This document shows positions 10,617-11,753 of a stretch of DNA of 64,000 nt, one piece after another. Position 1 is the stretch's first letter. The number at the start of each line of letters is the position of its first letter. Both the position numbers and the translations under genes were made by a program. The notes under the pieces were generated by a model. It was not told the DNA's origin. It made no database searches and saw only the letters and a list, made by a program, of their open reading frames with translations. Origin of the DNA: a bacterium (GTDB taxonomy: Bacteria; Patescibacteriota; Doudnabacteria; UBA920); NCBI GenBank assembly GCA_016699995.1, contig CP064996.1, positions 74,357 through 138,356 on the forward strand. The letters are read 5' to 3'.

Positions 10617-11021
10617 GTGGTAGAATGGAGTTGTATTATTCTAATCTTCTTATTCATGAGAAAGACTAAATATATAGCTTTTGCAGCAGTAATTATGGCT
10701 ATAGTAGGGGTATATCTTATTGCAATAGAAAGCGATAACTCGAAGGATCAAGAGGTAAATTTTGTGCAGCCTACCGTTAGCAAGCAACCTGCCGAAGAAG
10801 TGGAACCCGCTCCATCAGAAGGAAACAAGGTATATGCAAAGAAGCGAGGCTGTCCGGAAGAGTGGATATCTAATCAGATGCCAAGGTCTGTAGAGCCAGG
10901 ATCTCAGAATGAACCGCCGTCCGAGTATTACATAGTGGATGGCAAGCGAGCTGAATTAACCGAGTATGATACAGCCTGGGTTGAACAAAATTGCAATATT
11001 AAAAAAGAAATAGTTTATTAA
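10617..11021 (+). CDS. Secreted/membrane-anchored hypothetical protein with a novel Cys-containing C-terminal domain; the start could instead be 10656
   Basis: N-terminal hydrophobic helix. The C-terminal ~55 aa, 'CPEEWISNQMP...EYYIVDGKRAELTEYDTAWVEQNCNI', is homologous to the C-terminus of the next gene. Confidence 0.55.
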   Translation: MVEWSCIILIFLFMRKTKYIAFAAVIMAIVGVYLIAIESDNSKDQEVNFVQPTVSKQPAEEVEPAPSEGNKVYAKKRGCPEEWISNQMPRSVEPGSQNEPPSEYYIVDGKRAELTEYDTAWVEQNCNIKKEIVY

Positions 11022-11033
11022 TTAATCAAATAT

Positions 11034-11753
11034 ATGAATAAAGCAAGATACATTTTGGTTTTACTGATAGCGCTTACTCTAGCGCCTATCTCTTTAGCTA
11101 AGGCAGATGAAGCTCAAAATCGTTTGCCGTTCATTCGAATGTATAATTCGAAAATCAACGACCACTTTTATACTACTAGCGCAGCAGAGGCAAATGCTGC
11201 TGTTAGCAATCATGGCTATTCTATTGAAGGACAGCTTGGGTTTTTGTCCCCAGTGCAAGAGTCAGGGACCAAGCCGGTCATTCGTATGTGGAACCCTCGG
11301 GCGTTGAAGCATTTTTACACCACCAGCACTGCCGAAGAGGCGAGCGCTAAGGCTTCCGGTTTTATAACCGAAGGGATAATGGGATACATACAGCACGAAA
11401 TGATTGGCAGCGGGCAGTCGATGCCATTTGTATCGGAAAATAAATGGTCCTTATATCGAATGTATAATGGCTCAGCCAGTAAGCACTTTTATACCATCAA
11501 TAGCGGGGAAATGAATAGCTTGCTATCACGGGGTTATCGCATGGAAGGAATAACTGGGACTTTGTATAGGTCTAATTCTGATCTGCGCATTTGCCCTCGC
11601 GAATGGATACTCAATTCTATGCCCGGTGTTGTGGGTTCTGATTTTGTTCCTAGAGAATATTACATCTTTGACGACGGACGTGACGAACTGTTTAATTACG
11701 ACAACGCGTGGATTGCCGCTAATTGTGGGATTACTCGCCAGGAAGTATTCTAA
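11034..11753 (+). CDS. Secreted repeat protein with three ~40-aa 'RMYN...HFYTTS...EG..GY' repeats (DUF5648-like) plus the same C-terminal CPxEW...NC domain
   Basis: Signal peptide 'MNKARYILVLLIALTLAPISLAKA'. The three internal repeats are visible by eye. The C-terminus is a paralogue of the 10617-11021 C-terminus. Confidence 0.7.
   Translation: MNKARYILVLLIALTLAPISLAKADEAQNRLPFIRMYNSKINDHFYTTSAAEANAAVSNHGYSIEGQLGFLSPVQESGTKPVIRMWNPRALKHFYTTSTAEEASAKASGFITEGIMGYIQHEMIGSGQSMPFVSENKWSLYRMYNGSASKHFYTINSGEMNSLLSRGYRMEGITGTLYRSNSDLRICPREWILNSMPGVVGSDFVPREYYIFDDGRDELFNYDNAWIAANCGITRQEVF

Follow-up and report, generated by a model that had tools for sequence, protein, structure and literature searches.

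Two adjacent genes in a 64-kb stretch of contig CP064996.1 (hereafter the window, to the whole of which gene coordinates refer) encode proteins that end in the same compact module, a C-terminal domain of about 55 residues with two cysteines that is here called the tail. We regard it as almost certain that this homologous module is real, that it represents a large extracytoplasmic family absent from the libraries searched, and that DUF5648 repeats occur in the second of the two genes and in a third gene of the window (gene 3). The function of the tail was assigned tentatively, with confidence clearly short of even: from gene neighbourhoods in relatives and by analogy with known systems, it may be a surface-tethered protease-binding, and probably inhibitory, module, which in gene 2 would be targeted by the lectin-like DUF5648. 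The parts of the two genes on which the argument rests are the following.

10656–11021, plus strand: gene 1, a 121-residue minimal tail protein (QQS23021.1, IPM19_00410, 'hypothetical protein'); open reading frame (ORF) list and NCBI product.
10671–10730, plus strand: N-terminal hydrophobic segment of gene 1, YIAFAAVIMAIVGVYLIAIE, 20 residues after MRKTK; sequence reading.
10731–10844, plus strand: P/E/Q/K-rich low-complexity linker of gene 1; sequence reading, outside the conserved profile.
10845–11018, plus strand: tail copy 1, residues 64–121 of gene 1, with the invariant Cys66 and Cys113; family hidden Markov model (HMM), E = 4e-28, and AlphaFold2 (AF2).
11034–11753, plus strand: gene 2, a 239-residue protein with DUF5648 and tail (QQS23022.1, IPM19_00415); ORF list, Pfam and NCBI.
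11034–11105, plus strand: predicted Sec-type signal peptide of gene 2, MNKARYILVLLIALTLAPISLAKA; sequence reading.
11124–11249, plus strand: DUF5648 blade 1 (LPFIRMYN..HFYTTS..GY.IEG); Pfam, and β-β-α-β in the AF2 model at mature residues 7–48.
11268–11393, plus strand: DUF5648 blade 2; Pfam, and AF2 at mature residues 55–96.
11394–11447, plus strand: 18-residue insert of gene 2 between blades 2 and 3, HEMIGSGQSMPFVSENKW; low confidence in AF2.
11448–11561, plus strand: DUF5648 blade 3; Pfam, and AF2 at mature residues 115–152.
11583–11750, plus strand: tail copy 2, residues 184–239 of gene 2, with the invariant Cys187 and Cys231; HMM, E = 1e-23, and AF2.

The original prediction, made from the sequence alone, had proposed that the two adjacent genes end in homologous two-cysteine tails. 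Both quoted tails were present as written, and they aligned with 47% identity over 58 residues (BLASTP, E = 4e-16). They were the only tail copies in the 64 kb, since tblastn recovered each with the other at an E-value of about 1e-13 and the next best match had E > 1. The tail is described by the motif CP(D/E)EWI.N.MP...Y(F/Y)I..G.R.E...D..W...NC....VY. Across 194 family sequences, C8, P9, P18, Y33 and C55 were invariant, all five being present in both window tails, and R40, E42, W50, M17 and D47 were conserved in at least 95%. The loop from the invariant M-P to the invariant Y was hypervariable in the same sequences and ranged from 6 to 21 residues. Directly before the first cysteine, a [L/K]-[L/I]-[R/Q/K] motif was conserved (KKR in gene 1), with the last of its three positions basic in 64%.

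Two cysteines were found in 176 of the 194 tails, four in 7, six in 10 and one in a single tail, and these even counts make disulfides plausible. The two invariant cysteines probably form a disulfide, which would fasten the helix to the N-terminal strand; in both window proteins, as in the tail family, 8 residues follow the second cysteine. One sub-group (P0019, P0057, P0099, P0102, P0107, P0112, P0117, P0139 and P0140) carries four extra cysteines, C.C....C..C, within the variable loop, e.g., MPCACADDDCSGCDNPP. These could brace the loop, either through an additional disulfide pair or as a metal knuckle.

Structure prediction of the gene 1 tail with 134 homologues gave a predicted local distance difference test (pLDDT) score of 86.1 and a β-β-β-α-β order of elements, namely β(11–15), the variable loop, β(32–36), β(39–42), α(48–54) and β(59–62), with a β-bridge at residue 5. 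The full mature gene 2 product was modelled with a pLDDT of 90.2 and a predicted template modelling score of 0.75, as three β-β-α-β blades and, after them, a tail in which the elements of the gene 1 model recur. Because the same elements were recovered at a pLDDT of 86 in the tail alone and 90 in the full protein, the fold of the tail is considered to be confidently predicted.

The tail had not been recognized as a named domain, and searches of Pfam-A (2025 copy), NCBIfam r20 and PDB sequences bore this out. Pfam-A gave no tail match at E ≤ 1 for the window tails and none that was meaningful for 134 family tails, while NCBIfam gave no tail match, with sub-threshold noise on the N-terminus of gene 1 only. 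A profile search of PDB sequences with the tail returned nothing below E = 0.2, and Foldseek comparisons of the gene-1-tail and gene-2 models with PDB and BFVD returned no match at E ≤ 1e-3. A Foldseek match of the full gene 2 model to Greglin-subtilisin (E = 7) was not significant and was disregarded. No Pfam peptidase-inhibitor family was found among the weak matches of the 134 tails (E ≤ 1), and the cell-wall-binding modules LysM, SH3b, PG_binding_1, SLH and CW_binding gave no HMM match to the tail. A limited literature search found no paper describing the tail, and every source that names a tail member labels it 'hypothetical protein'.

To gauge the extent of the family, 1.84 billion cluster representatives (50% identity) were searched exhaustively with HMMER; 542 of them matched at E ≤ 1e-3, and of these 202 reached E ≤ 1e-10. 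A word-indexed search with a two-sequence profile matched the query alone, and a scan of genome contigs with profile A1 gave no match. Positions and lengths were counted in 148 members, comprising the best 150 of the 542 matches minus two repetitive false positives (P0002 and P0020). The proteins were short, with a median length of about 124 residues; in the family, 128 members have at most 135 residues. A hydrophobic N-terminal segment was present in 169 of the 189 members starting with Met (~89%), 33 of them lipobox-like, and most members lacking it look like truncated gene calls. As judged from their sequences, the members of the family are exported and extracytoplasmic. The same applies to the window pair, for which secretion had been predicted: both proteins appear to be exported or anchored by a hydrophobic N-terminus, gene 1 presumably through YIAFAAVIMAIVGVYLIAIE as a signal anchor or uncleaved signal, and gene 2 through a signal peptide that is probably cleaved after AKA, following the AxA rule.

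Members were found in Liptonbacteria, Saccharibacteria and Buchananbacteria of the candidate phyla radiation (CPR), in Pacearchaeota of the DPANN archaea, and in metagenome-assembled genomes of Sphingobacteriaceae, Sphingobacteriales and Bacteroidetes. The Pacearchaeota copy is located on a 457-kb contig with archaeal-type neighbours (TrmB, a PF04414 deacylase and a TP_methylase-family protein, PF00590), and the Bacteroidota copies adjoin genes with sorting domains of the type IX secretion system (T9SS). These contigs rule out a CPR-specific family. The notion of a lineage-expanded family had to be abandoned, as the 542 representatives are spread across CPR, DPANN archaea and Bacteroidota. The source of the window, with a metagenome-assembled contig of 943,189 bp, is probably itself a CPR-type bacterium, to judge by this small size and by the relatives of its genes. 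No tail was detected in IMG/VR viral contigs, PLSDB plasmids or BFVD, and PHROGs gave no tail match.

The position of the tail could suggest that it is a C-terminal sorting or secretion signal for a dedicated machinery, comparable to T9SS C-terminal domains (CTDs) or sortase signals. The tail match ended at the last residue in 100 of the 148 members and at most 2 residues from the end in 127, the terminus was -VY, with a terminal aromatic, in 85, and the N-terminal 'cargo' is variable. However, most members are minimal and cargo-less, and they seem to be membrane- or lipid-anchored at the N-terminus already. The tail sequence has no hydrophobic C-terminal segment, transmembrane (TM) helix or known sorting motif, and Por_Secre_tail or comparable sorting-signal models gave no match among the 134 tails at E ≤ 1; in the loci described below, Por_Secre_tail matches the neighbouring protease rather than the tail. 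We know of no dedicated export machinery common to CPR, DPANN and Bacteroidota, and consider a role as a sorting signal very improbable.

The regions N-terminal to the tail were analysed in 55 longer members. They included PsbP_2 (8 members), DUF5648 (2), PG_binding_1 (2), DUF333, Gmad2, DUF5667 and Kre9_KNH, all of them non-catalytic envelope domains. Because these fusion partners are all anchoring or binding modules, because the minimal forms consist of anchor, linker and tail only, and because an invariant scaffold surrounds a hypervariable loop, the tail is proposed to be a functional 'payload' that stays constant. What precedes it varies (TM helix, lipid anchor, PG_binding_1, DUF5648, PsbP_2 or Ig-like domains) and would merely position the tail at the envelope.

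Evidence on what this payload may act upon came from gene neighbourhoods. Contexts were obtained for 35 loci from degenerate-pattern scans, the tail gene being called in 32, and for seven more by exact protein look-up; genes were called and the two neighbours on each side were clustered. In 9 of the 32 pattern-scan loci, the +1 neighbour downstream of a minimal tail gene, on the same strand and after a gap of about 1–160 bp, encoded an S8 subtilase (Peptidase_S8 by Pfam). With 950–1660 residues, these proteases formed the sole large recurrent neighbour family. Protein look-up added two further cases (L043 and L048), giving 11 loci in total (L003-5, L007-8, L021, L034/35, L037, L043 and L048) from two phyla. 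In the Bacteroidota group (L004, L005, L007, L008, L034/35, L043 and L048), tail proteins with a lipobox are encoded about 1–31 bp ahead of an S8 protease that carries Por_Secre_tail. The CPR group (L003, from Buchananbacteria, L021 and L037) combines TM-anchored tail proteins with proteases that contain Ig-like domains and a prodomain of the fervidolysin type. The S8 catalytic domains were 47–73% identical within Bacteroidota and 29–34% identical between the two groups, and in a neighbour-joining tree the S8-linked tails fell into two separate clades. Since S8 genes make up a small fraction of any genome, a chance adjacency in two lineages is very unlikely, by rough reasoning rather than a computed statistic. 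Other peptidase genes also occurred next to the tail, in the orders M16, tail, S49 (L044) and S49, tail, S8 (L037).

Two side observations concern the same neighbourhoods. A conserved ORF of about 90 residues lies directly upstream of the tail gene in CPR loci with the protease (L003:654-920 and L021:4619-4903), and may be a third operon member. On two CPR contigs, one of them from Liptonbacteria (L047:511-2819 and L039:1-1356), the tail gene is located beside or between the halves of a split transketolase.

Since minimal tail genes are found directly upstream of secreted S8 proteases in two phyla, the tail is proposed to bind, and most likely to inhibit, subtilisin-type proteases. A candidate for the surface that makes contact is the hypervariable loop leading from the invariant M-P to the invariant Y. 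On this proposal, gene 1 would protect the cell surface while tethered to the membrane, and gene 2 would present the same module, brought by the lectin-like DUF5648 to a glycan surface, either the cell's own wall or that of a host.

The same adjacency would also fit a different role, in which the tail is an accessory or docking module that anchors, stabilizes or activates the S8 protease, or a substrate cleaved from its carrier, with no inhibition involved. PrcB of the Treponema dentilisin complex is a small lipoprotein that partners an S8 protease in such a non-inhibitory manner, and the motif preceding the first cysteine could be a processing site. That motif, however, is partly structured (the β-bridge at residue 5) and basic at its last position in 64%, and may be part of the fold. 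In addition, the tails gave no Pfam match to PrcB_C or another accessory family, and none of the 55 long members is an S8 protein carrying the tail. We consider an accessory or substrate role quite unlikely.

Several observations weigh against a protease-binding and inhibitory tail. Neither the sequence nor the fold resembles known inhibitors (Pfam, PDB sequences and Foldseek), and a loop whose length varies between 6 and 21 residues does not resemble a canonical reactive-site loop. The adjacency of tail and S8 genes fits an accessory subunit or a substrate equally well as an inhibitor. The pattern used for sampling loci (CPDEWIxN) was narrow, so that the S8-linked fraction is biased, and about two-thirds of the contexts contained heterogeneous housekeeping genes (GrpE/DnaK, split transketolase, FloA, ClpP and MgtC). 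The Bacteroidota adjacency may be one inherited synteny block, because the TK and Fer4 neighbours are conserved there as well. Finally, the 64-kb window contains no S8 gene, gene 2 being followed by topA on the opposite strand, and the two window tails fell into clades of the neighbour-joining tree outside the S8-linked ones. A more far-reaching version of the proposal would make the tail the first representative of a new fold class, that of subtilase inhibitors tethered to the envelope in CPR, DPANN and Bacteroidota. In ultra-small episymbionts it would be fused to glycan- or peptidoglycan-binding modules (DUF5648 and PG_binding_1) and bring protease protection to the cell wall or the symbiont–host interface. 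We regard this version as rather doubtful.

The DUF5648 repeats of gene 2, and those of the third protein of the window, were identified as had been predicted, with three copies in each. Gene 3 is located as follows.

56453–56998, plus strand: gene 3, a 181-residue exported protein with DUF5648 only (QQS23067.1); Pfam.

The Pfam matches (PF18885, gathering threshold 25) were E = 2.4e-36 and 125.4 bits at residues 31–176 of gene 2, and E = 4.1e-26 and 92.2 bits at residues 49–178 of gene 3, in which HFY/HLY motifs occur at residues 61, 105 and 152. Gene 1 gave no DUF5648 match in Pfam, and gene 3 gave no tail match. A weak tblastn match to DUF5648 at 63978-63652 belongs to an NTP_transferase gene and was rejected. 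DUF5648 has no solved structure; its published fold consists of three β1-β2-α-β3 subdomains in a three-bladed (β3α)3 arrangement (PMC11299179; bioRxiv 2025.01.06.631476), and the AF2 model of gene 2 reproduces the three β-β-α-β subdomains. DUF5648-type CTDs of BSAP-2 and BSAP-3 target O-antigen, and GH70 enzymes and a GH25 endolysin also carry DUF5648, as an auxiliary domain. These proteins are exported, like those encoded by genes 2 and 3, and by analogy DUF5648 is a putative lectin-like binder of glycans or cell wall, as proposed in the literature. In those proteins the domain is appended to a toxin or enzyme, whereas here it stands alone (gene 3) or is fused to a new tail (gene 2). It is not a speciality of Actinobacteria and CPR, as had been suggested, since both the matches and the papers also take in Bacteroidales toxins, Firmicutes and fungi. 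Among the fungi, Mycena, Beauveria and Pleurotus have DUF5648 proteins of comparable size with signal peptides (P0211, P0212, P0213 and P0216), and in P0218 DUF5648 is fused to an L,D-transpeptidase (YkuD) domain. The DUF5648 part of the pair was known before and contributes little that is new.

Gene 3 lies just upstream of a cluster resembling a type IV pilus or type II secretion system (window 56453–62888). The cluster contains a 582-residue ORF (57598–59346), which by eye could encode a PilB-type ATPase, followed by PilC/T2SSF (59402–60613), PilM (60649–61704) and two small ORFs. A 102-residue coiled-coil-like ORF (57138–57446) separates gene 3 from it. Two other ORFs near gene 3, both on the plus strand, are one of 1134 residues (51025–54429) with no Pfam match at E ≤ 1e-3, and one of 160 residues (55602–56084) with a match to DUF4258 (E = 3e-6), which overlaps antisense ORFs.

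The tail could also be a small disulfide-stabilized binding tip for a glycan, a cell-wall polymer or a host ligand, in which case gene 2 would encode a bivalent binder for attachment of an episymbiont to cells or hosts. CPR and DPANN are obligate episymbionts, and the tail family is common in both. The proximity of gene 3 to the type IV pilus cluster, the fusion of the tail solely to non-catalytic, binding-type domains, the putative glycan binding of DUF5648, and the conserved surface-type residues W12, Y33, W50, N15, R40, E42, D47 and N54, which would resemble those of carbohydrate sites, are consistent with such a role. Against this, the tail also occurs in Bacteroidota as lipoproteins of 79–94 residues paired in an operon-like manner with T9SS proteases, where host adhesion is unlikely. 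Basic residues after the lipobox cysteine of these lipoproteins suggest, by comparison with Bacteroidota lipoprotein export signals, that they are not exported to the surface. The tail has no similarity to known binding modules (Pfam, PDB sequences and Foldseek), and no expansion is evident: the 64 kb contain two copies, and almost every locus has just one. An adhesive tail was considered unlikely.

The pair itself is bounded by two further features.

10479–10554, minus strand: tRNA-Lys(UUU), which bounds the two-gene unit upstream; ARAGORN.
11760–11788, either strand: bidirectional hairpin resembling an intrinsic terminator, with a stem of 12–13 bp, 6 GC pairs and T runs on both strands.

Genes 1 and 2 are co-oriented and 12 nt apart, between tRNA-Lys(UUU) and topA (11789–14134, minus strand), and the hairpin is common to the 3′ ends of gene 2 (plus) and topA (minus). 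No terminator was found in the 12-nt gap, and a promoter scan gave nothing above background. For gene 1, the start was placed at ATG 10656 because the NCBI annotation and the topology agree; a GTG start at 10617 (134 residues) was rejected, as the NCBI product begins at ATG 10656 and its 121-residue form, unlike that of 134 residues, is present in the protein collection by exact look-up. The two genes form a unit whose products, as predicted from their N-termini, are extracytoplasmic. Within gene 2, the insert HEMIGSGQSMPFVSENKW (11394–11447) has a pLDDT below 50 at mature residues 103–109, and its orthologues have another, longer P/A/S-rich insert at this position. A weak phmmer match of the insert to cytochrome c oxidase subunit 7C was attributed to chance.

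Orthologues of gene 2 with the same architecture (P0195-P0200 and P0145) were 49–55% identical to it. Tail-less relatives (P0201-P0207), several of them on contigs longer than 100 kb, were 46–54% identical in the DUF5648 part and stop right after blade 3. At five syntenic loci (L009 and L012-L015), a gene-2 orthologue lies between tRNA-Lys/methyltransferase and topA without gene 1, which rules out an obligatory operon of membrane anchor and secreted cargo held together by tail–tail pairing. Local tandem duplication was likewise rejected, as the gene 1 tail is nearer to tails of other organisms (58–60% identity) than to that of gene 2 (47%). Gene 1 is, from these comparisons, best read as a lineage-specific insertion of another member of the tail family. 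The absence of gene 1 in syntenic relatives and of the tail in some gene-2 orthologues indicates that the tail is an autonomous module, apparently gained and lost. Gene order is conserved between window 5691–10439 and L012/L013, with an AcrB-like transporter, an ORF of about 180 residues, an S-adenosylmethionine methyltransferase (minus strand), tRNA-Lys (where present), gene 2 and topA, and this provides a clean frame in which to date the insertion of gene 1. The only other tandem tail pair among the scanned loci is in L019 (4881–5675), where two minimal tail genes of 99 residues lie 201 bp apart and are followed by ClpP.

Many exported proteins of CPR and DPANN lack assigned roles, and surface function is central to how these organisms live on their hosts. 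The present analysis adds a module that is compact (about 55 residues), is modelled with confidence and has a defined invariant core; it occurs in at least 540 distinct 50%-identity clusters across two domains of life. A specific hypothesis that is cheap to test is also offered, namely that the tail binds or inhibits the S8 protease encoded next to it. If the link to proteases fails, the tail family would still merit an entry of its own in domain libraries and be well suited to structural genomics.

Among known systems, the T9SS CTD (Por_Secre_tail, PF18962) resembles the tail in its strictly C-terminal position, similar size, attachment to exported proteins and presence in Bacteroidota. The CTD is a β-sandwich, whereas the tail is an α/β fold, with no HMM match between them. 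Unlike the CTD, the tail is mostly found on minimal proteins without cargo, and also in monoderm CPR and archaea; where both occur at one locus, Por_Secre_tail is on the neighbouring S8 protease and not on the tail.

SSI, eglin/CI-2 and Kazal proteins are small, disulfide-braced canonical inhibitors of serine proteases, in which a conserved scaffold surrounds an exposed loop. The tail is likewise small, exported and, as predicted, disulfide-stabilized, with a scaffold flanking a hypervariable exposed loop. Subtilisins prefer a hydrophobic P1 residue, and the invariant Met-Pro at the entrance of the loop recalls such a P1. The tail differs from these inhibitors in its variable loop length and in the proline after the methionine, which would be an atypical P1′.

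The closest proposed functional analogues are the potempins of Tannerella forsythia, lipoproteins of 98–132 residues encoded at most 5 bp upstream of the T9SS peptidases that they inhibit (PMC9890683). In this potempin/KLIKK-peptidase system the cell shields its own surface, and one potempin, PotC, inhibits a subtilase (PMC9890683). The Bacteroidota tail proteins are also small lipoproteins (~80–95 residues), encoded 1–31 bp upstream of a T9SS-secreted peptidase, in this case S8. A gene for a small anchored protein directly ahead of a co-oriented gene for a secreted peptidase occurs in the 11 loci of relatives and not at the window genes, which are followed by topA on the opposite strand. Potempin folds are 5-stranded OB or 8-stranded up-and-down β-barrels, whereas the tail is predicted to be a 4-stranded sheet with a helix and a cysteine pair, and its sequence resembles that of no PDB chain, including those of potempin structures. 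Unlike potempins, the tail family reaches CPR and DPANN and also occurs as the C-terminal module of larger proteins. If the protease-binding proposal is correct, the potempin-type logic of an inhibitor encoded upstream of a secreted protease would extend beyond one oral pathogen, with a new inhibitor scaffold. The likeness to potempins concerns how the tail may work and implies no membership among them; on this analogy, the tail would be classed with the small envelope-tethered modules genetically coupled to secreted proteases.

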